A model generated the notes under the pieces. The model ran no database searches, was not told the origin of the DNA, and saw nothing but the letters and a program-made list of their open reading frames with translations. DNA of 46,643 bases, the filler included, from Jimgerdemannia flammicorona (taxonomy: Eukaryota), in assembly GCA_003990765.1 (NCBI GenBank). It is 2 parts of 2 records of this genome, joined end to end, with 100 filler letters (N's around TTAATTAATTAA, not from the genome) between each part and the next. Parts side by side here need not be neighbours in the genome. Positions count along the whole stretch, not along the records: positions 1 to 23,275 come from RBNJ01001126.1; 1 more part is not named here. One strand, 5' to 3'. Below, piece by piece: positions 578-40,340 of the stretch (the first letter of the stretch is position 1; each line of letters starts with the position of its first letter). The position numbers and the translations under genes are program-made.

Positions 578-2050
578 TTACGCCGTATGAGGTCTAATTT
601 TATATTTTGTATCGTACCCAACACTAACAGCTGGGTAAATCGTATCGGGAAGATTGGTCCACGCGACGCCGTATTTCTGTCTATTGATCGAGAGGGAGCA
701 ACTACGATCAATCATATTCAGATGGAAGGTGACTACATCTCCGCTTCGAAGATTTCTTCCGTATGACGAATTGATGCAGGTTCTGCCGACGTGAAGGCTG
801 CCATAGCTACAACCATTTACTTTCGCTTGGAAAGACCACGATGTGCCCGAAGCGGAAAGCACTCCTTTAAAACCACTAAAGGCTGTCCCAATAATTCCCA
901 TCTCAAGAGTTTGGGAGCCAGTCGATACAATAACAACATCCCACTCGCATAATTCCATATTCGCCGCCGTGATAGGGGTGGAGATTCTGACCGTGCGAAA
1001 AGCATGAAACAAGGGTGCAACAACCGTATCGCCCTCAGTAATTTCCAGACCAGTCCCAATTTCCGACTGATCCCACTGGAAACAAAACAGTCTTGGCTTC
1101 CCACGGAATCCGGACCGATGGTTGCTGGAACATCTGGTACCGGCGCAGGCGTGGTGCCATAGAGCCCTTTGATGAGGCAAGTCATCCGTGAGCGCGTCAA
1201 TGGTCCCTATGAGGAGCCTCAAACGGTGCGGACACACGAGCACCAAGTCGATGTGTTGCACCATCCTCAGTAGCGGGGCGCGTGATACTGAGTGCGGCTC
1301 GTCGGGGAAGTATATTTTGGCTTTTTGGCGGGGCTCTTCGTACGGCTCCCGTATATATTCAAGACGTCGTAGATGCATGTGCCGCTCAGAGTGGCCTGGT
1401 GCGTACTGGCTGCGGGACCAGGCCCAGTCGACGACGCACACTAAAAGGGTGTGCTCCGGGGTTTCGAAATATTTGGTCAAATTGGAGCGAGTACGCGTGA
1501 GCAGCAGTTCGAGTGCGTTTTCGCAAAGGTCGTTTAAGTCCCCCAAGCCAAGGTTGCGTTCGTAAAATGGGGCGAGGAGAACGTCGAACACCTCCATATT
1601 TTGTTCGTCAGGTTCCATATCGACAATGCAATTGTTAAGCAGCGACGAAGCAACACGCACGTCATGGATGTCCTTGACATGCTCCAAAACCATCCCCATG
1701 AGCCTCGGAAGGCAGAAAAATCTGGCAGCGTCGTATACCTTCATGATCAAATCAGGTGGAAGTTGAGCTTCGATGGCTTCGGTGTGCATGTAATGGATGA
1801 CGACCTTGAGCGCGTTCGACCTGATATTTTTGAGAATGATTTCTTCGTATGGGCCTTTCGAGGATGGGCAAGTGCCAAAGAGCATCTTCATAAAAACTGT
1901 GGACCTCGCGGCAAGGAAGGTACTGCAAGCCCTGATCTTGACGCTGTCGGCGCAAATAATAGTAACATCGTGGAGAGTGGTGTTGTTAAGAAGTAGTATG
2001 AGATCGGTTTTTAGGTCATGTCCACTCGTAGGTTTAGAGGGATTCGACAT
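578..2050 (-). CDS. BTB/POZ (+BACK-like) - SPRY/B30.2 domain protein, 490 aa, intronless
   Basis: N-terminal BTB signature (LHDVTIICADSVKIRACSTFLAARSTVFMKMLFG...LKVVIHYMHT...VYDAARFFCLPRL). C-terminal SPRY-type motifs (FQWD...CEWDVVI...MGII...GDVVTFHLNMIDRSCSLSIN...LPDTIYPAVSV). Long uninterrupted ORF in CpG-rich DNA. Confidence 0.85.
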   Translation of the reverse strand: MSNPSKPTSGHDLKTDLILLLNNTTLHDVTIICADSVKIRACSTFLAARSTVFMKMLFGTCPSSKGPYEEIILKNIRSNALKVVIHYMHTEAIEAQLPPDLIMKVYDAARFFCLPRLMGMVLEHVKDIHDVRVASSLLNNCIVDMEPDEQNMEVFDVLLAPFYERNLGLGDLNDLCENALELLLTRTRSNLTKYFETPEHTLLVCVVDWAWSRSQYAPGHSERHMHLRRLEYIREPYEEPRQKAKIYFPDEPHSVSRAPLLRMVQHIDLVLVCPHRLRLLIGTIDALTDDLPHQRALWHHACAGTRCSSNHRSGFRGKPRLFCFQWDQSEIGTGLEITEGDTVVAPLFHAFRTVRISTPITAANMELCEWDVVIVSTGSQTLEMGIIGTAFSGFKGVLSASGTSWSFQAKVNGCSYGSLHVGRTCINSSYGRNLRSGDVVTFHLNMIDRSCSLSINRQKYGVAWTNLPDTIYPAVSVGYDTKYKIRPHTA

Positions 2051-2270
2051 AGTGTCTGCAGGGGAGGCGGAAGGTGAAAGAAGAGTCTCGATGTGTGGCT
2101 GTATATTGGGCTCGTCAATTAAATATTTGCATGGGGCCTAGAATCCGTTCGTGATGTTGTTTTCATAAATGCGCCCATATCATATGTCCTTGAGATAAAC
2201 CACTGATAAATTGAGCCGAGGTGCATCACTCGGGCAGTGACCCGTACGCTTCTCGTTATGGATAGCCGAA

Positions 2271-4358: not shown

Positions 4359-6236
4359 TCAAGACGTATCGCACAGAGTCAATGTCCCGTAGTCATGTTT
4401 TGAAGTCGTCGTGCAACCGGGATATTGCGAGGTTCCACAAGGCGATTTGCAGACCTTACATATTTCCATACACCCAAGCGACCCTACCGAACATCCGCAG
4501 GCATGGAGTGCGACACAACCTTCGACACCGCGGTCACCATCACAGCAATTGTAGACCTCCCTACATCCGTTGCTATCACCCACGTCCTTTCCACAGCAAC
4601 CATATTTGCGCTGGCAGGGCTCGGTCGCCCTGCAGCAATTATAACGAAGCTTGCAGCCGGTTCCATTCCCATTGCAACAGGAGTAGACGCAGCCAATGGA
4701 CCCGAGGTCCAAATCGCAACAGTTGTACTTATGACGGCAAGGCGTTTTGTAACTACAGCACGAGTAGCGGTACTCGCATCCGTCGTCATTTGACTTACAG
4801 CAGGCGTGAACACATCCAGGCGAATTGGGATCCGTGTTGCCACAGCAGGCCCAGATGCCTGCACATGGTCGATTTTGGAAGCAACAATCGTAATAGTCAT
4901 CACAGCCGGTGTTAGAGGAGGAGTGACAGCAGGCATATACACAGCCATCCGAAATGATGGAGCGGCCGCAGCAGGACCACTCGTAGTTCGGGTCCACTTC
5001 GTCAGCGATGACGTTGACTACATTGGGTACGACTAGCATATCAAGCCAGCTTGATGACCGTGGGATGCGCTTCCGGTAGCCGGTATGGCAGAGACCCTGA
5101 AGATGGCGGTTTCTCTTGGTGCCTTCGTGATGAGTCCGTTGGTACATCCCACTGTGCCCGCTGTTACTGGCATCGGCATGGAACCATTTCAGGTCACCAG
5201 GGTGATACGGGCTGGTGACTTGGGTGTGGACACGGGTGGGCGACGGATGGTGATAACTCCCACTCTGTGGATGGTAGCTCGAAATAACGGTGTTTTTTGC
5301 GTGGGTTCTAACCAGAGCATGCGGGTGGATAAACTTGTACTCTGAAAGGTGCATCTTTGCGACGTCGGCGTGACATTTGGAGCTTGCTAGCCGAGGGTCG
5401 GTAACCTCACCACACTTGAGGCATGTGGCATTGTGGAAGAGAATTGTGATTGGGTGTTGGTCGTGTGCTTGCATCAGTTTCTCATACGTAGGGAGTAGCT
5501 GGTGCTCCTTGTAAATTCCGGTCTCGTTAAGTACATAGCCGGGTAGCTGTCGAAGCGGCGAGCTTTCACCAAGTCGATCAAAAAGCCATAACTTTACCAC
5601 GTCTGTCTGAGGTAAGACAGTATTCGTTGAGGTCGTCCGAGGTATGACATTGTCCCGTGAGGTTGTTTCAGGTGAGCCACCTGCAGCTTCCTTAATGACC
5701 GTTACTATCTGGTCGTCCACCTCCATCCCTTTTATGACAATGATAACATTCCTCCATACATCACCTTCATTGTATCGGGCGAGGTCGCGGATGCACTCTG
5801 CCTGTCGCCCAAGCGCAGCCGTCGTGCGATCTTTGGCATTGACAAACCAGAGAATGGTGTGAATCTTTGTTATTGGCGGTATGTGCTCTCGCATGGACAC
5901 AAGGATGTCGCGTGCAATATTCTGGTCGGTGCTGGTAGGGTCAGAGTCATCGAATCCCGCAGTATCGATGTAGATGTACCGGCGATTAACACACTTGTGA
6001 GATTCCACCTCCTGAGTCGCTGAGGTGGGGCTATGACCGACGGCCGCTTCCTCCGCTCCAAAGATTCTGGCCGTGGAGGATTTGCCACCCCCGATTGCTA
6101 GCACGTATCGTACCTCGTCCACGTCTAGGAAAATATTGCCGCCGTCAGCATTGGAAAAACAATAATTTATATTTTTTAAAAAAATAAAACCGAGTTACTC
6201 ACTGGCAGTTGTATCGTTCGAACTCAAGGTGGTCAT
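4359..6236 (-). CDS. AIG1/GIMAP-like P-loop GTPase with His-repeat and Cys-repeat (putative multi-zinc) C-terminus; exons 6236-6203 and 6124-4359, 599 aa
   Basis: ATG at 6236. A phase-1 intron at 6202-6125 (GTGAGT...GCTGAC...TTTTCCTAG) joins exon 1 in frame to the 587-aa ORF. GTPase motifs: VLAIGGGKSS (shortened G1), SATQEV (G2), YIDTAGF (G3), IHTILWFV, NVIIVIKG (G4-like). These are followed by CLKC, the His repeats and the [YWH]xCC..[GP]C repeats. Confidence 0.85.
6125..6202 (-). other. 78-nt spliceosomal intron of the intact GTPase gene
   Basis: GTGAGT donor, GCTGAC branch-like site and TTTTCCTAG acceptor. Removing it restores the reading frame. Same phase as the intron in the paralog. Confidence 0.8.
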
Positions 6237-6915
6237 TTTCCTAGGAGCGCTAGGACAACTGGGGTTTCCCCGAGTTATAGATATTTCATTGTACTACAAA
6301 TTTTTGGCTCCTTAGAAACCGGTTTCAAAATACGACACACAAACAGGGGGAAAACGGCTTCATCAAACAAAGGGTCGGCAGCACAAACCGTTTGGATTCA
6401 CAAACATGGCGCGGCGATCTACAGATAATCTCATGCCGTTACGTGCCGTTTGTTCAACAACTTAATTTGGGGATGCGCCGACAACGATGAGAGTGAAGAT
6501 GTAATAGAAATACAGATAGACCAGCGTCGATGCAGAGCAAATAACAATGGGAAATGCAAGATTTAATCGCCACATAATACGCAGTCGGCAGCTGGTCCCG
6601 TCCACGAATTTTCAGGGTAGAATCTGGAACCCCCATCTATTCCTGAGCTCTGTATGCGACACATTTCTTTGTTCGTAATTGTCTTACGAAAAGTTCCCTC
6701 ATTACGGAATAATCGGGGTGGAGATTTTTCGCTAGGAGGGCCATATGTCCGTCGATCGGTCGTGGTACGTATATCCTGGCACACAACCTTTTTCCATATT
6801 ATTTCAAGAGAAAATTTGTTGTGAGAAAGAAAACCTCGCCCACTCATATATATATATATACATATAAAACCTCCAAATATAACGTCTATTTTGATGACAC
6901 ACAAAGATTAGAAAC

Positions 6916-6918
<3 letters not shown>

Positions 6919-6961
<43 letters not shown>
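6919..6961. repeat. poly(T) tract of about 43 nt between the divergent GTPase paralogs
   Basis: Homopolymer seen directly. Confidence 0.95.
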
Positions 6962-7437: not shown

Positions 7438-8737
7438 ATGACTGCATCGGGCGACGATGGTGAGTTCGCCCAAAATTCTAGGGTGTTGTATTTCCAATGT
7501 TACCTTCACCTAATATTTCCAAAACCGCAGAAGGAACCGATTGGAAATGTGTGATCGCCGTCGGCGACAGTGGCAACGGCAAGAACTTCACAGCAACAGC
7601 CTTCGGAGCCGCTGCCGAAGTAGGCCATGGACCGGGTTAAATGACCGAGACGGTGAAGATCTACCGATGTGCTTGCAACCACTTCATCTTCCTCGATACC
7701 CCTGGCTTCAACGATTCCAACCCAGACAAGGTGGACCAGGATACGGCGCGGAACATTCTGGCCACGATGCGAGACGCCGAACCACGCATCGAGTGGGTGC
7801 ACACTATCCTTGGGTTCGTCGATGGCGCGGATCGTGCCAAGGCTACATTGCAGCGGCAGGCCGCTTTCATCAGCGACCTTGCCTTGTTACCTTGTATTAT
7901 GGAGGGAACAACGTCACCATCGTCACCAAGGGCCTGGAGATCGACGAACAAAGCGTCAACGCAATCGAAGCCGCCTGCTTTCTTGGCGACAAAATTACTT
8001 GCTCACTATCTTCTCGCCAACGTGGGAATTTTCAAAGTTCATTTGTACGATCGCTTCCCAGAGACGTCGGTGTACCACGACCTCAATCCCGACGGTCGGG
8101 TCAAATATGGGACTTACACAAAAGAGGAGCTGCTCCCCAAGTACATCGAGTTGATGCAAGGACATGAATAGCACCAGATCAAGGTCATTTTCCATGACGC
8201 GAAGTGCCTCAAGTGCGGCGAAGAGACAGACCCAGGATCGCGAGTTCCAGCTGTCACGTCAAAAGTGTCATGGCGCACGAACCAGGCTTCATTCAGGTCC
8301 ACTCGAAAGACACACAATAAAAACGACTCCATCGTGCCTTATCACCCGAAATCAACAAGGAAAGCTACCACCTCTCGATGCGATGGTCCATCGAGTTCCG
8401 AATCCTCGTAAGGGGCATGATCCGAATGGGGTAATTACGCAACGCCATACGTCCAACCAACGCGTTCACAGCAGCGGGTTCGTCAAGGAGCACAGCAACG
8501 CATTCCAAAAGTTCTGCCAACACGCAGACGTTGAGATTCACCCAGGACATTTGGCAATGGTTCCGCATTATGGCCTCTGGAATATTGCATTAGTACCTGC
8601 ATTTGGTGTCCACCATAGCAGACGCGATTGATACTCGTTATAAGTGGAGTTGCTGTGGCAAATCTAGTGGCACCGGAGGGTGCGTCTATGGGTGCTGCAT
8701 GCGCCAAGGTCTTGGATGCCAGGAGCTTTACTCATGT
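7438..8737 (+). pseudogene. Pseudogenised paralog of the His/Cys-ladder GTPase, truncated by transposon insertion
   Basis: ATG at 7438 and a phase-1 intron at 7460-7530 (GTGAGT...CCTAAT...CAG). Motifs VIAVGDSGNGKN, FLDTPGF, VHTILGFV, CLKCGEETDP, His repeats and KWSCCGKSSGTGGC-VYGCCMRQGLGC-QELYSC are collinear with the intact gene. In-frame stops at 7638 (TAA) and 8169 (TAG) plus several frameshifts. Homology ends abruptly at about 8737. Confidence 0.88.
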
Positions 8738-8761
8738 AAAGGCGGTCCGTACTCCGGATAG

Positions 8762-18277: not shown

Positions 18278-18682
18278 CTTTATCAAGTTAAGACAAACTG
18301 CTAAGGCCCCAACCAAAGGAAGTCAAAAAGCAGCCAGATATGACCTATATGCAGCCGAAGAAGCTACAGTTTCCAACTGAGAAGTTAAACAAGTCTATAC
18401 AGGAATCAGTATCCAAATCCCTGAAGGACATGTTGGAAGAATATGCTGTCGCAGCAGCCTAGCATTGAAAGGACTCTCAGTAGAAAGAGAAGTCATTGAC
18501 GAGGATTACACAGGCGAAATTATTGTCCTCATTCAAAACCACAGTTGGACACCCTTCAAGATCTCTATTGGCTTCTGCATCACTCAGATCCTATTCGAAA
18601 AAATCGAGTCAACCCTGACAGTCAAGGAAGTCCCTGAACTACTGCCCACTATCCGAGGATCCAAAGGATTTGGCTCATCAAA
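18278..18682 (+). pseudogene. dUTPase domain of gypsy A, between the gag zinc knuckle and the protease
   Basis: All five trimeric dUTPase motifs are recognisable: AARYDL, RSSLA, VIDEDYTGEI, ITQILF, RGSKGFGSS. Confidence 0.9.
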
Positions 18683-19877
18683 CAAAGCCCCAGCCCAGCC
18701 TACCATAAGCAAAGATGAACAATTCTACAAGAAGATCGAAGATGGATATGTACCAAATGGCCGATGCCCTCATGGCATTGGAATGTACTCTTCCCGAATG
18801 ATTGATGATTGCTTCTCTTGCGTCAATGAACTGGCTCAAAGAAGAACCAACAGAAGAAAGACCCCTACAACTGAAATCACCACAATTGGATCAGACAAAC
18901 TGCTCACCCTTAAGGCTTTTGTCAATGGAACACCTGTCAAGATTATGATAGACAGTGGTGCCTCAGACAACTTCATCAATAAAGAAACAGCCAACAGACT
19001 CAAGGTCTTTACCTCTCCAGTACAGCAAACTCAAGCAGTTGCTACAGCTGATGGAATCTCACATGTTATTAGCAAAGAAGTCTGCAATCTACCCTTCCGA
19101 ATTGGTGACTACTGAGTACATGTTACCCTCCAAATTGTACCACTTCCTGACAATGAAATCATCCTTGGGACTCCATGATTAAAACAAGAGAACCCCATGA
19201 TTGATTGGGTAAACCATTCCCTGACCATCAAGAAAGGACGCCACAACTTCAAACTATAAGGCGAAAAGGACTCACTCAACTCTAGTGACTCTGGACCAAA
19301 GATCACCCACATTAACAAGCTACAACTCAAGAAATTGGCCAAGAAATGCTCTCTCTTCGCCATCTCCATCCGACCATCAAAAGGAGAACCTGAGAACTCT
19401 GAAGAAGATTTTTCCAAAGTTGACAGCCATGTCAGACCACTACTCCAGAAATTCCGAGACATATTCCCAAAGAAGCTCCCAAAAGGCCTACCTCCCAAAC
19501 GAGCAGTAGACCATACAATCAAGACTATCCCAGATGCCAAACCAGCCTTCAAGTCAATCTACCACATGTCTCCGAGAGAAATTGATGCACTCAAGAAGGA
19601 AATTGACGAACTCCTAGAACAAGGATTCATCAGACCTAGCGTATCACCCTATGGTGCACCAGTCCTCTTTGTTGTCAAGAAAGGAGGAGACCTACGAATG
19701 TGCATTGACTACCGTAATCTCAATGAACAGACCATCAAGAACTGTTGCCCACTACCAAGGATTGATGAAATATTTGATAGACTTACCAACCCACAATTCA
19801 TGAGCTCTTTTGACCTGTGAAATGGTTACTGGCAAATTGCCATAAAAGAAGAAGACATCTACAAGACAGCTTTCTGA

Positions 19878-23375: not shown

Positions 23376-26300
23376 TCCCCCCCCCAACTCCTTCTTGATG
23401 AAAGACTACTTTATCAATCACCATCTCCACCTGCCCACCACTCTGTTCACATATCACTTCCACCAGATGGCAATGTTGCCCACCTTGGGGTCCCCATCCA
23501 ACCAACCACCCAGTCATCAGATCCACCACCAACTCCTCCCATCTCAACAACTTCTCCTATATCTCTATCTGTTGCCCCTTCTCAAAAACAAAGAGCCAAT
23601 GCCCAGCCAACCCCACCCACACTACCACAACCCATCCTACAGTAAGCCACCCATTGCTGACACCTCCCACAAGTCTAGATTCCAAATCTTCCCAGCGACC
23701 TCTCTCACCATCTGGTCTCCTTTCAACCCCTAGCCGGTTCCCTATAGCTATCCAAAAGTCCCCCAGCACCTCACATTCACCCAGCCAATGTTTCAGTGTT
23801 TGTACAAATCCCCCAGCTTGCCCAACATTATAACACTCCTCACAATCCAGCTGACCACCATCCACCAGATACCTAGTACAGAAATTCAACATGATATTCC
23901 TCTGCAACATTCACCACTACACTACCCAGAACTTGGGGGGTAGCCACCGCCACACCTCTATACTCCAAGACCAGATCCCTGCCCAGTCCCACTCTTCACC
24001 AATCCTCACCGCCTGTCAACTACTCAGCCAAAGATCCTGACAAATTCGCCACTGACACTCCACTCCATCCCCAATATCAAACTCAGCAAGTGGAACTCCC
24101 CCTAGAAGTAGACAGTCTCATCTCTACATAGCTGGGCCCCATACCACCTCCCCCTCATTGTCATGCCAGTGCAGGCCTATCTGGTGCACTCCATTGACCA
24201 CTCCCCACCAGAAGCCCTTATACCATAGCCATTGGCTTCCATTCAGACCCACCAAAGAGAGTAGATTCCCTGAGGACCCCTGGGGGGAGACTCTCAACTC
24301 CCATACCTTCTGCATCAGCAGTACCCAACCTCCACCCTGTAGCTCAACAGCCCTTCTCAAGCTTATAGGCAGTATAATTGCTTAGGGAAATCGACAAGTC
24401 CCAGGCCTCCCCTAAGCACTGGCTCAACAAGGGTTTCCCAACTGATCTGGGCCCTTTTACCTGTCCAAATTCAATCCCTAGCCAGTTTCATCAGCCTCTT
24501 CACCACTGAAGCTGGAAAGTCTAAGTGATATGCCACATACCACAGCTTGGAGAACCAGTCTACATTCAGAATCACCACCCACCCCACCAGGGAGATGTAA
24601 CAACCCCCCCAACCTTTTAGAGCCTCCCCCCAAATGTCCACCCTCCTCTCCCACCACACCTGTGGCAGGACTGATCCATATATAGAGAGGAAGATACCGA
24701 GATGCCGCACCACCTCTCCTGTGTAGACAATTGTTCCAATGATATCCCCTCCCACCAGCCCATTCCCCAACACCATTGTCTCATACTTATGCCAGTTGAG
24801 CCTTGCTCCAGAGTGTGCCTCATACCACTCCACTGCTCCCCGAAGAGCCTCTACATCTGCTACTGATCCAAGTCCAACTACCATATCATCTGCAAAGGCC
24901 CCCACCTTCCACTCCACACCATACACAGAGAGCCCAGCCACCCTCCTATGGATCCTATCCATCAAAGGTTCCAAGAAGAGTGCATAAAGGATAGGGAACA
25001 GCAGGTCCCCTTGAGTGACTCCCCTCTTCAAGGGGAAAGCCAAACCCCTGTGACCATTACACAACAGCACTGCTCTACTCCCTTCCAACAAACTTAACAT
25101 AGAGGGCTGAAACTGTGGCAGAACACCAATTCTGTCCAGCACCTTGCCCAGCCAAACCCACCAAACATGGTTGTAGGCCTTCTCCTGGTCCAAAAAAACC
25201 AGTCTACCATCCAGTCCGCAGGCCCAGACTCCTTCAATAATGCCATGCACTCAGGCCATTCCATCTCTGATAAGTCTACCACCTACAAAGCCCCGCTACT
25301 CCTCCCCCAGCACCTGTTGAGCAACCTTCTGTAGCCTTGCAACAATCACCTTAGTCACCAACTTCCAATCCATATCCAGAAGCATGATTGATCTCCAATT
25401 CTTCCAATCCTCATACCTGCCCTTGTCTTTGTACAATAGTGCCACTGGCCCTAAGTCCTGCTCTCCAACCCACATGCCATTTAGAATAACATAGTCGCAG
25501 AGGGCAGCCATCTCTTCCAGCATTCCAGGGACTTTTGCCATCTTCTTCCAGAAGTCCCATGGTAACCCATCCTCCCCAGGTGCTGTCCCAAGCTTAGTCA
25601 CTGTCAGGACACCTTGAATCTCCTCCTGCCAGACTGGTAGGATCAGATCATCCAGTCTCTCTACCTGCAGTGGCTCCCACTCCTCCAGTGCATCACCAAT
25701 CACCTCTGCATCAGTACCCCCTTCTTCCTCACTCTACAGACCCCGCCAATTCTCCTTCAATACTCCCAGGATCTGCTGTGTACTATGCACCAACTCTCCC
25801 TCAGCATCAAAGACCCCATCCTACCGATGTCTCACCTGCCTGGCTTTGAGGAGCCTAGACAAGTACCTAGTAGGCCACTCCCCCTCCTCAAGCCCCTGCC
25901 ACCTTAGCCTGGCAGCCATTCCTTACATATGGGTCTCCTCCTCCTCTCTCAACATCTGTTGCAGTTCCACCACTTCCAATTTTGCCCTCTATAACCTCCA
26001 ATCCTCCACCTCATCAGATGTAAGCAAATCTGCCCACTCCAACTGCAATCCCCTCAGCCTATTTAAAGCACACTATACTTGCCTCCTCCTCTGTCTCCCG
26101 GCCTCTCTACCAGCTCTACCCCAATAGACCCTCGCAGCCTCCTTCAACCTCATCCAATGGATACCCACAGACAAACCCTCCCGCCTCTAGAGCATAACCT
26201 TTTCCTGGATGTCCTCCACCAATGAGTCCCACAACCCCTTCTCAGCCAGCAGGGAGGAGTTAAGGTGCCAATGTCCAGATCCATCTCCACTCCCCCCAAA

Positions 26301-36628: not shown

Positions 36629-37659
36629 CATAATCTCTCTGGTACAATTCGCATTACACAAACTTCAAGCAATGGTTTTACATACAACTCAGAGAAACAA
36701 ACATGGGTAACACGGGCAACATGGGTAAGATAGCAAGACAACAAGACGGGCGACATGGGCAAGATGGGCAAGACAGGCAAGACAGGCAAGACAGGCAAGA
36801 CAGGCAAGATGGGCAAGATAGCAAGATGGCAAGATGAGCGATATGGGCAAGATGGGCAGACAGCAAGACAGGAGACATGGGCAAGATGAGCAAAATGGGC
36901 AAAACAGGCAAAATGGGCAAAACAGGCAAAACAGGCAAAACAGGCAACACGGGCAACACCGGCAATACAGGTGGGCAACACGGGCAACATGGGTAACACA
37001 GGTGGGCAACACGGGCAACACAGGTAACACAGGTGGGTAACATGGGCAACATGGGCAACACAGACAACACAGGCAACATGGGCAACATGGGTGGGCAAGA
37101 TGGGCAAGAAGGACAAGATGGCAAGATGGGCGACATGGGCAAGATGGGCAGATGGCAAGACAGGTGACATGGGCAAGATGGACAAAACAGGCAAAACAGG
37201 CAAAACGAGCAACATGGGCAATATGGGCAATATGGGCGGGCAAGATGGGCAAGACAGGCAAGATGGGCAAGATGGGTAACATGGGCAATACAGGCAAGAT
37301 GGGCAATATGGGCAACATAGACAACATGGGCAGGCAAGATGGGCAAGATGGGCAAGATGGGCAAGATGGCAAGATAGCAATATGGCGGGCAAGATGGGCT
37401 AGATGGGCAAGACAGGAGGCACTAATAGGGGTAGGTCAGGTGCACTAGATGCCAAGTACTTGAGGTGGTTGGGGCTCACAACCCATACCCACTGAGTGGG
37501 GCAGGCCAGGTAGGAGGATCTAGTTACTCGGGCAGTGAGGTCGCAACTCACACCCTAAAGATACAAGGCTGGGAGTGGGTTGAGATTAGGGTAGAATGGG
37601 ACTACTGATATTGTATGAGGATATGTAGCATGTTATAGATAGTTAATAAATGATTCACA

Positions 37660-37702: not shown

Positions 37703-40340
37703 AGCAATAACTAGTAGAACTCCTCAACAAATATTAAGCTATCTTCACCACCAATTATGGCAACCTACCATACAACCCATTATATCACTACAGTATAAAT
37801 ACAGGAAATGCAACACCCATTAGGTAGAAACCCTATAGAATACTCCATTACTTAAAAATATTAAAATATTCAAAAAGGAGCACATTCAAGAACTCTTAGA
37901 CAATGGAGTCATCTGATCCTCTATCAGCCCCTGGGCCAGTCTTATACTTATTGTACCAAAGAAAGGAGGATGGAGACTCTGCATAGACTACAGAAAACTC
38001 AATTCAGTTATCAAAAAGAATATCTATTCTTTGCCCAGAATTGATGACCTTTTGAATCAGTTATAAGATATCAGATACTTCAGCAGTATAGACCTTTTTG
38101 CAGGATTCCATGAGATCCCCATGGACCCCAAAGACATTCAAAAGACAGCCTTCCTTGCTTTAGGAAAACTATTCAAATACCTCTGGATGCCCTTTGGACT
38201 TTACAATGTATCTCCCACCTTTCAGAGGATGATAAATTCAGTCTATGCTCTCTTAATCCACCACTGTCTAATTGTATATATGAATGATTCCAACATCTAT
38301 TCAGCAAACTTTGAAGAACACCTGCACTACCTAGAAGAATTCTTCAAGCTCACCTACAAGAATCACCTAAGACTCAATACAAAGAAATACTACTTTGGGA
38401 AACAGAAACTTGAATTCCTTGAATTCATAGTTTTGAAAGAAGAAACTCATACAGATTCAAAGAAATCCAAGAAGATCAACAATTGGCCAGTATTCAAGAC
38501 CCCAAAGGAAACACTATCATTTCTGATACTAGTATCCTACTATAGAAGATTTATCAAAAACTTCACCCAAATTGCTACACCAATCAGAATCCTTCTCAAG
38601 AAAGGAGTGCCATTCAAATGAACAGAATTATAAGAAAGAGCCTTCAAAGAACTCAAGAACCACATGACTATAGCACTGATCCTTATGCACCCCAATCTAT
38701 AGAAGCCATTCATCTTATATACAGATGCTTCCAAAGATGACTTAGGAGTAGTTCTAACTCAAGAAGGACCTGACCAACAACACCATATGATAGCTTATGT
38801 AAGTCAAGCTACCAATCAGCAGCAGATGAACTATAGTAGCACTAAACTGGAATATCTTGCAGTCATATAGGCAGTTACCTTGTTCAAGCATTACCTCATT
38901 GGAAAAAGGTTCACTCTGATCACAGACCATAGAGCCCTCAAATGACTATTCAACTACAAGAAACTCATTAGAATCTTAGCCCACTAGATCCTTATCCTTC
39001 AGGATTACAAAATTACCATTATCTACAAAGCAGGAAAAGCTCACAATAATGTTGATGTACTTTTCTGCCAGTCCTAATGAACCAGAAGAAGGGTGTCCTG
39101 AGAAACTATACCCTAAAGGAAGCTCCTCAGACTATCAAGGCACAAGATCTCATTTGAAAGAAACATCAAAAAGCCCACCAAGGACAAGTAAACATAGAAT
39201 AAAAGTTGTGAACAGTATATCAGCATTGGCCCAATCTCAGAACATAAGTCTAGGATATACTCAAGAAATGTGATATCTGTCAGAAGTATTAAGGAAGGAA
39301 GAATTATCAAGCACCACTGCAACTAATTGTACCACCAGACAACATCTTTCAGAGATGGAGAGTAGATGTAATTAGACCCCTACCAGTTATACCAAGAAGA
39401 AACAAATACATCCTTGTATTTGTAGAACATCTGACCAAGTGGCCCAAGACTATCCCAATGGAGATTACAGATGCCTTAATCATTGTAGGCCTTCTCCATA
39501 GACTCACACTTAGATATGGACCCCCAGAAGAACTCATCCCTGACTGAGGCACAGAATTCATCAACAACATAATTATAAGTTATGCCTGAATTCACAAGAT
39601 TCACCTCAAATGAACCACATCATACTACTCCCAGACCAATGGCATGACAGAAAGAATACACCAGACCTTCAAGAAAGAACTTGCCTGAGTCAATCCTACC
39701 AACTGGGACCTCTGCTTATTTGAGATCCTATGGGAAATTTGGAACACCCCTGCTACCTCCATCAAGCAAAAGCCATTCGAAATAATATTTGTCAAGAAAA
39801 CCAGAACTGCTGACTATGAGAATCTTGGAGATCTCCTCAAGAAGGCAGAACAGTTACATAATCAGGCCTGAGTTCAGATTACCAAAGCCCAAGAAAGACA
39901 AAAGAAGTACTATGACCAGAAACAGAAATATCAGAAGATCAAGATTGGAGATCAAGTATTAGTTTGGAGAAACATGATTGAAACAAACTTTGCTACCAAA
40001 TTGGAGCCCATATAGGAAGGACCTTATCTTGTACACAATATCAGAGGAACTAGCATATATTTAAGTAGCATGGATGGATAAACCCGCAGGACACCAGTAC
40101 ATATCAATCACCTCAAGATATACCTTTCCTAATATCATGAATCAAAGAGTTGATAACTGCCTTCAGACTCTTGTCCTCAGCTCCTTTTAATCACTGCTAG
40201 TTCCCCTACCTCAATTCCAAGAAGTCAATGGGAGTACTCTCTAGAAAATTCAGATTTATCAAGAGAATCTTGTTCTAGCCAGATGATTGTTACAGATTCA
40301 TCAACTTCAGACCCACTATGCGATTTGAGAATTGCAGAAC

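Follow-up and report, generated by a model that had tools for sequence, protein, structure and literature searches.

Why would a fungal gene encode a GTPase-like protein whose C-terminal half supplies a run of histidines and then, beyond a gap, an equal number of three-cysteine units? The gene in question lies on the minus strand of a 46,643 nt stretch of DNA from Jimgerdemannia flammicorona (assembly GCA_003990765.1; two parts joined by 100 filler letters, hereafter ‘the window’), at 4359–6236, and the 587-residue product of its long open reading frame (ORF; 4359–6122, by translation) is referred to here as P0001. The sequence pattern described for this gene in a first-pass annotation was confirmed: a rule-based parser returned 13 histidine (His) steps and 13 three-cysteine (Cys) units, ahead of a lone terminal His, and translation re-derived the DNA coordinates given there for the two halves (5372–5085, and 4979 onward). 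We think it probable that the gene encodes a cytosolic G domain of AIG1/GIMAP/Toc type joined to a zinc-stabilised hairpin stalk, the latter being an iterated form of the CHORD/BTK-type zinc module.

The tail opens with an anchor, CLKCGEVTDPRLASSKCH (5370–5423; this and all following features of the gene are on the minus strand), in which CLKC supplies C234 and C237, and C250 is directly followed by H251; its columns are invariant among relatives, its ligand logic is like that of the CHORD N-lobe, and it was modelled at pLDDT (predicted local distance difference test) 87–91. From H251 to residue 346 (5085–5372) runs the His half, 13 steps mostly of x-Y/F-H-P-G-like sequence and spaced 6–10 residues apart (251, 258, 266(268), 274, 284, 291/292, 299, 307, 315, 323, 331/332, 340 and 346). 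There follow 37 residues (347–383) without any His or Cys, within which the tip loop (residues 347–381, 4980–5084) contains a hydrophobic stretch, WLDMLVVPNVVNVIA, picked out by Kyte–Doolittle windows. The second half comprises eleven [YWH]xCC-x5-9-[GP]C units (residues 382–536, 4515–4979), ordered long-long-short three times and then long-long, and two closing units (residues 540–570, 4413–4505), HACGC..GC (C542, C544, C551) and CKVC..GC (C555, C558, C570, with an extra Cys at 562), which are conserved and have pLDDT 79–87. H576 (4395–4397), the proposed fourth ligand of a base site, is likewise conserved and is analogous to His218 of CHORD II; one more Cys lies past it at residue 584. All 39 unit Cys, the 13 His steps, the anchor and the terminal His stand in register within the 587-codon ORF.

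The order of the Cys units amounts to a three-unit super-repeat, two long (CC-x7-10-GC) and one short (CC-x5-PC), which is common to the Glomeromycota relatives P0005, P0006 and P0007; inspection by eye found no period-three pattern mirroring it in the His half. At the DNA level the tail repeats are short, 70–87% alike and spaced 126–129 nt apart, and none of them looks like a recent duplication from which the way rungs are added could be read.

Relatives came from HMMER run exhaustively against 1.84 billion representatives, which gave 137 proteins at E≤0.001, and from word-index homologue searches, which gave 2 proteins from the protein query and 3 from the alignment query; a metagenome scan with a single protein query found no relative, and the ESM Atlas gave no usable match. 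The anchor, as CxxC...C[HN], is present in 101 of the 139 proteins collected. Across an alignment of 50 sequences, C234, C237, D242, R244, C250, H251 and H266 were the invariant tail columns, with H258, several unit Cys, C551, C555, C558, C570 and H576 conserved at ≥90%. Because the anchor columns and H266 are invariant, and H258, several unit Cys and H576 conserved at this level, the ladder pattern is, judged from the alignments, not due to chance. The earlier proposal that the base is closed by CxxC, a further Cys and the terminal His gains from the same columns, all of these positions being invariant or nearly so. A separate alignment of 17 relatives with five rungs had four His steps, all three Cys of four CC units and the terminal His invariant, with ≥90% conservation of the fifth His step and of each of the three Cys in the closing CxxC unit. 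Glomeromycota relatives repeatedly show a Cys-to-His replacement inside a unit, CC becoming CxH, as is expected of metal ligands. In P0003, P0012, P0016, P0017, P0018 and P0021, the third unit from the C-terminus reads Y-x-x-C-x-H-x5-6-C in place of CC...C, a swap that would turn that rung into a C2H2 site.

Were each pair of His step and Cys unit a zinc ‘rung’, the two arrays would have to grow and shrink in step, and equality of the two numbers across length variants had been set as a test beforehand. A His step was taken as the first His 6–16 residues past the previous one, and a unit as CC, CxC, CxxC or CxH and then the next Cys. The counted set consisted of P0001 and the 50/139 proteins in which the anchor was accompanied by one or more units and the last unit by a His no more than 10 residues on; the other anchor-bearing proteins were fragments or frame-shifted models and were dropped ahead of counting. 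Over a range of 2–16 rungs, His steps equalled Cys units in 28/51 proteins and differed by at most one in 45/51 (r = 0.93, slope 1.03), P0001 scoring 13 and 13, while 20,000 runs of shuffled pairing gave a mean of 7.8 equal pairs and a maximum of 17. Under six parser settings, 26–32 of 51–52 proteins had equal counts and 42–46 were within one.

The relatives are not independent of one another, and the comparison was therefore repeated as phylogenetically independent contrasts on a tree built from the G domain alone (48 rows, after omission of P0023, for want of a G domain, and of three rows truncated at the N-terminus). Rung number differs among paralogs and lineages on this tree, and the slope through the origin was 1.02 (r = 0.90, n = 47). 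Among 41 contrasts in which His number changed, unit number moved in the same direction in 29 and the opposite direction in 8, and was unchanged in 6. The equality set as a test is thus upheld, with a slope near one by either route. Individual proteins give the same picture: P0025 exceeds its five-rung relatives by three His steps and three CC units, and in P0023, 28 His steps are matched by exactly 28 ladder units, the last of them a canonical CxxC...GC unit.

What kind of fold could couple two arrays in this way? In CHORD II of Rar1, by the account given with its solved structure, two zinc ions are bound, one in the C-lobe by His181, Cys196, Cys197 and Cys213 and the other in the N-lobe by three Cys and a returning C-terminal His (His218), and the two-site domain is an elongated cylinder of about 54 × 13 Å (PMC2935968). 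An outer site of C,C,C + H around an inner one of H + CC + C, as described for CHORD (Rar1, Chp-1, melusin; PF04968), is the ligand logic of the tail, and in sequence both the base (C234, C237, C250 ... H576) and each rung fit it. It is because CHORD offers a two-site version of this logic that we read the tail as an iterated CHORD/BTK module, and since a two-site CHORD corresponds to the family architecture with one rung, the pairing is read as nested. The chain would run outward through the 13 His steps, turn in the 37-residue, partly hydrophobic loop and return through the 13 units of the form aromatic-x-CC...GC. Each His1Cys3 zinc site would join one step, number i from the base, to one unit, number N+1−i from the loop. 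With the base closed by C234, C237, C250 and the returning H576, P0001 would hold N+1 = 14 mononuclear sites, and zinc loading would zip the two halves into a thin rod, some 15–30 nm long by rough extrapolation from the 54 Å cylinder of the two-site CHORD.

The likeness to known modules extends to their wording in sequence, and the differences are chiefly of scale. The CHORD elements Y-H-P-G and W-x-CC...GC...H resemble the x-Y-H-P-G steps and W/Y-x-CC...GC units of the family. CHORD has two sites in about 60 residues, whereas the P0001 tail has 14 presumed sites in about 350; CHORD occurs as tandem pairs and binds Hsp90/Sgt1, whereas the family carries N+1 presumed sites (3 to 29), proposed to be nested in a single hairpin that can reach several hundred residues, on a G or PH domain. 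In the BTK motif, one His, CC and a further Cys bind one zinc at a single local site. The BTK/Tec-homology finger accordingly has the His + CC + C of the rungs, and the order of PH domain and zinc motif in P0023 recalls Btk; but the BTK site is local, whereas in P0001 only the innermost rung could be, with 37 residues between its His and its CC. The sequences support the view that the tail is a new, iterated form of the CHORD/BTK zinc module, carried by a branch of GIMAP-like GTPases that is uncharacterised. The wider claim is that proteins whose repeats are nested in mirror image make up a new class, forming rods of 3 to about 29 zinc sites that act as rulers with a membrane-active tip, and that CHORD and BTK are their minimal relatives; towards this we lean only slightly.

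The tail was assigned to no known domain in Pfam scans, run on P0001 at E≤1, on 53 relatives at E≤0.002, on 12 tails at E≤10 and on 77 relatives at E≤1e-6. The tails gave no family beyond sub-threshold matches to the BTK motif (PF00779): 15.8 bits for the window tail (E = 0.014), 19.5 for P0003, 20.2 for P0021 and 13.0 for P0139. DUF8206 (PF26633) matched nothing in any of the four scans at their respective cut-offs. Full-text literature searches listed no paper describing such a tail. Nematode and Rhizophagus AIG1-like genes have been treated in a study in whose main text ‘zinc’ is absent (PMC6872716), and proteins joining TIR_2 to a BTK motif are described from sea anemones, the oomycete Phytophthora ramorum and the cryptomonad Guillardia theta (PMC5094078).

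Structure prediction was carried out with AlphaFold2 (AF2) on the whole of P0001 (50-row alignment; mean pLDDT 69) and on the 172-residue tail of the five-rung relative P0102 (mean pLDDT 88.9). In P0001, confidence was high (pLDDT 79–97) over the G domain and linker, over the anchor and His steps one to three (231–270), and over most of a C-terminal stretch holding the final three units and H576 (521–580), within which a block at 531–540 has pLDDT 54; this symmetry fits a predicted base built from both ends of the tail. In the P0102 model, four 4-residue strands lie between successive His and four between successive Cys units, single-residue bridges occur three residues past each CC, and there are N- and C-terminal strands. 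Such a pattern is consistent with small sheets of CHORD-like kind stacked on one another.

Several results weigh against a nested zinc hairpin. The counts are unequal in 23/51 proteins, 14 of them with one surplus His. Four of these 14 (P0054, P0055, P0076 and P0081) have unit inserts of >16 residues and agree once longer inserts are allowed, but P0005, P0009, P0036 and P0072 stay one off, unexplained, and in six (P0014, P0016, P0026, P0082, P0086 and P0118) the difference is two or more. For the six, possible causes proposed post hoc are additional tip inserts rich in Cys, His within the loop, steps separated by more than 16 residues and doubtful gene models. Spacing speaks slightly for the hairpin: if the halves are aligned antiparallel, distances between His correlate with distances between units (rho = 0.25, p = 0.001, n = 169), and if they are aligned parallel they do not (rho = −0.09). 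The antiparallel correlation is weak, is similar at shifts of 0 to +2, is uncorrected for relatedness and is given little weight. Selection on overall tail length could make the two counts co-vary with no pairing at all. The Pfam CHORD model matched neither P0001 nor the 53 relatives and 12 tails scanned, and was absent from the 25 of 58 families listed for the 50 aligned relatives, and every BTK match was confined to the CC...GC units and fell below the 24-bit cut-off. Most of the middle of the P0001 stalk has pLDDT <50. Compared with the PDB, the five-rung P0102 model gave no Foldseek match at E≤0.001 and, with VIA-align, 0/48,161 chains at Z≥2, a lack of match to CHORD that may come from a thin elongated shape and not from a different fold; PDB sequence searches returned nothing for the window tail and four rows at chance level only for that of P0102. 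Lastly, the shortened P-loop and pseudogene neighbour described below make it possible that the P0001 copy is decaying.

Some of these same results could be explained were the two halves independent, the Cys half being a metallothionein-like store or cluster, or else disulfide-knotted, and the His steps a separate metal-binding or low-complexity repeat. About 20% of the C-terminal 200 residues of P0001 are Cys, no fold or sequence match ties the tail to a solved structure, and the middle of its stalk was modelled without confidence. Metallothioneins, like the tail, are very rich in Cys, bind metal (as the tail presumably does) and have no hydrophobic core. They form polynuclear thiolate clusters with few His, whereas the tail has a fixed ratio of 1 His to 3 Cys and a His half matched in number, and no Pfam metallothionein was found in P0001 or the 12 tails. 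One would not expect independent halves to keep to a slope of one over N = 2–28 and through 47 contrasts, and the strict 3 Cys : 1 His stoichiometry, the conserved terminal His and the CxxC anchor match mononuclear sites of CHORD/BTK type. Disulfides would also sit poorly with a G domain of cytosolic kind and an inferred N-terminus at which no signal peptide can be read. We regard independent halves as very unlikely.

Equality of number says nothing of whether a His step meets its Cys unit in the same chain, and the same His1Cys3 sites might form between chains, by domain swap or in an antiparallel dimer or filament, so that the tail would be an oligomerisation device. Such pairing predicts equal counts equally well, the GIMAP, Toc and septin relatives act as dimers or oligomers, and many members of the family have inter-half loops of 50–80 residues that are flexible or hydrophobic. 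In some relatives, though, the loop is only 1, 4 or 13 residues long; at 1–13 residues a local turn is favoured, and nothing but a hairpin would let every step pair with a unit of its own chain. CHORD, the precedent, forms its sites within one chain as described, and AF2 modelled the five-rung tail confidently as a monomer. Pairing between chains is therefore judged unlikely, and we return to the single-chain hairpin.

The loop would form the tip of that hairpin. Its most hydrophobic 15-residue Kyte–Doolittle window scores ≥1.6 in 19/52 relatives and 1.0–1.6 in 8 more, P0001 among the latter (1.59), and in most of the short-loop five-rung group the tip is aromatic/basic instead. As tip loops are hydrophobic in many relatives, our preferred reading is that the tip would touch a membrane from the end of a stalk whose length is fixed: a rigid stalk would hold the loop away from the G domain, the loop would probably contact a membrane, and the two together would do the work that in other GIMAP/Toc-like GTPases falls to a coiled coil or a C-terminal membrane anchor, with rung number as an evolvable parameter. 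The loops of 50–80 residues found in P0030, P0031, P0033, P0036, P0067, P0072, P0074, P0088, P0094 and others are Gly/Ala-rich and strongly hydrophobic, and look like a membrane hairpin or glycine zipper.

What, then, does the stalk stand on? In P0001 it is attached to an AIG1/GIMAP/Toc-like G domain with a helical linker (residues 1–228, 5439–6124; pLDDT ~90), the assignment resting on profile and fold alike and agreeing with what had been proposed from the sequence. The family profile compared with PDB sequences placed GIMAP4 first (E = 9e-11), then Der/EngA, GIMAP7, septins and Toc, and Foldseek with the P0001 AF2 model gave GIMAP7 at the top (E = 2e-7), followed by Toc34, GIMAP1, GIMAP2 and GIMAP5, so that the modelled domain is of the GIMAP/Toc-type fold. 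GIMAP/AIG1/Toc34 proteins (PF04548) resemble the family in G-domain profile and fold, but where the family has its Cys/His ladder they finish with helices, with coiled coils or with a transmembrane anchor. The Pfam AIG1 model matches 22/50 aligned relatives at E≤1, with scores above the 27-bit cut-off in P0081 (37.7), P0003 (27.1), P0009 (27.1), P0037 (30.1) and P0069 (51.2). P0001, unlike these families, has no match to any Pfam family at E≤1, AIG1 (PF04548) and MMR_HSR1 included, and its P-loop is three residues short.

The gene model that we predict for P0001 is a simple one. Exon 1 (6203–6236) would contribute an ATG (6236–6234), 11 further codons and one base; a 78-nt GT..AG intron (6125–6202) would follow, with donor CCA|GTGAGT at 6202 and acceptor TTTCCTAG|AC (TAG at 6125); and exon 2 starts at 6124, splicing restoring the frame of the long ORF to give 599 residues. 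This spliced model, from a single intron over 4359–6236, is consistent with the sequence.

The P-loop itself, GGGKSS (6075–6092), lacks by in-frame deletion three residues of the G-x-T-G-x-G-K-S of relatives. P0001 reads AIGGGKSS where the relatives compared have IGxTGxGKS, which departs from the canonical Walker A motif GxxxxGK[ST], and the deletion is unique to P0001 among 26 compared rows of the 50-sequence alignment. Canonical nucleotide binding by P0001 is doubtful on this showing, the protein is possibly a pseudo-GTPase, any GTPase activity would be presumptive, and with the P-loop shortened the label ‘GTPase’ may be nominal.

A lesion of this kind could also mean that, however real the architecture of the family, the P0001 gene was recently inactivated or is decaying and its tail is without present function. 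Besides the P-loop loss confined to P0001, the failure of both Pfam G-domain models to recognise it would fit such decay, as would the retroelement remnants around it and its neighbour, a pseudogene paralog. The latter (~7530–8761, plus strand) stands head-to-head with the P0001 gene about 1.3 kb away. It keeps a G domain, an anchor and about 13 His steps (the steps as the first-pass annotation had them) in a reading that passes through several frames and stops. Of its Cys half, only two CC units are intact and a third is partial; beyond them the similarity is lost in C/T-rich sequence. The closest relatives, P0002 and P0004, run into a wrong frame of the Cys half. On the other side, a 587-codon ORF with the full ladder in register would not be expected to persist unselected, and a pseudo-GTPase can still serve as a scaffold. 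We think decay of this copy rather unlikely, though deserving of some weight.

The behaviour of P0002 and P0004 calls for a further remark: both database proteins leave the ladder frame, and their C-terminal parts match an alternative frame of the Cys half (compare the window ORF at 4484–4948). Either these are frame-shifted genes or the gene models in the source genome are wrong.

How far does the ladder extend beyond Jimgerdemannia? The nearest database match to P0001 belongs to J. flammicorona (Endogonales) itself: a hypothetical protein, annotated ‘G domain-containing’ and 70–75% identical over the first half. Fungal members come from Glomeromycota (Entrophospora, Ambispora, Funneliformis), Endogonales and Blastocladiomycota (Allomyces, Blastocladiella), the Funneliformis geosporum relative bearing Pfam AIG1; outside the fungi, they come from the salmon louse Lepeophtheirus salmonis, Foraminifera (Bolivina, Nonionella) and an MMETSP protist transcriptome. 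All named members are annotated only as hypothetical or ‘AIG1-type G domain-containing’. The ladder-tailed family is widespread, in fungi, a copepod, foraminifera and protists, and it is uncharacterised. In P0023 (Bolivina argentea, 1814 residues), a PH domain (185–284) is followed directly by the 28-rung ladder, and since the PH domain there replaces the G domain, the ladder is a mobile module. Past its ladder P0023 has four WxCxxC fingers, RanBP2-like by their motif, and then a SecA DEAD-like domain.

Should the proposed rod exist, it would embody a principle absent from catalogued repeat proteins, in which two distant arrays are coupled one-to-one via metal sites. It would also pose an evolutionary puzzle, as a single tandem duplication cannot add a rung. 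For protein design, it would be a natural, genetically tunable nanometre-scale rod almost without hydrophobic core, and for zinc biology, 14–29 zinc ions per chain could make folding steeply zinc-dependent. In plants and animals, GIMAP/AIG1/Toc-like proteins have links to immunity and to processes at membranes, and the rod would define the tail of a widespread, wholly uncharacterised branch of these GTPases, supplying eukaryotes from fungi to crustaceans and foraminifera with a stalk or ruler mounted on either a PH domain or a G domain of GIMAP-like kind. The CHORD and BTK motifs would take their place in a larger family, with hints at their origin.

The surroundings of the gene offer some observations of their own. 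Between the divergent paralogs, at ~6900–6960, lies a homopolymer of about 50 A, read as T on the plus strand. The gene is adjoined by a 519-codon open frame (578–2137, minus strand) with a BTB/POZ match (E = 5e-16) and a weak match to SPRY. Retroelement remnants, comprising dUTPase with aspartyl protease and reverse transcriptase fragments, are found at 18381–19115 (plus strand), 24471–25250 (minus strand) and 38067–38621 (plus strand), and around them the window has a strong strand bias, with a GC skew of −0.2 to −0.5 over ~22 kb (8000–30000). Farther along, at 36703–37412, are about 80 copies of a 9-nt unit like ATGGGCAAG, arranged with a higher-order period of 94 nt.

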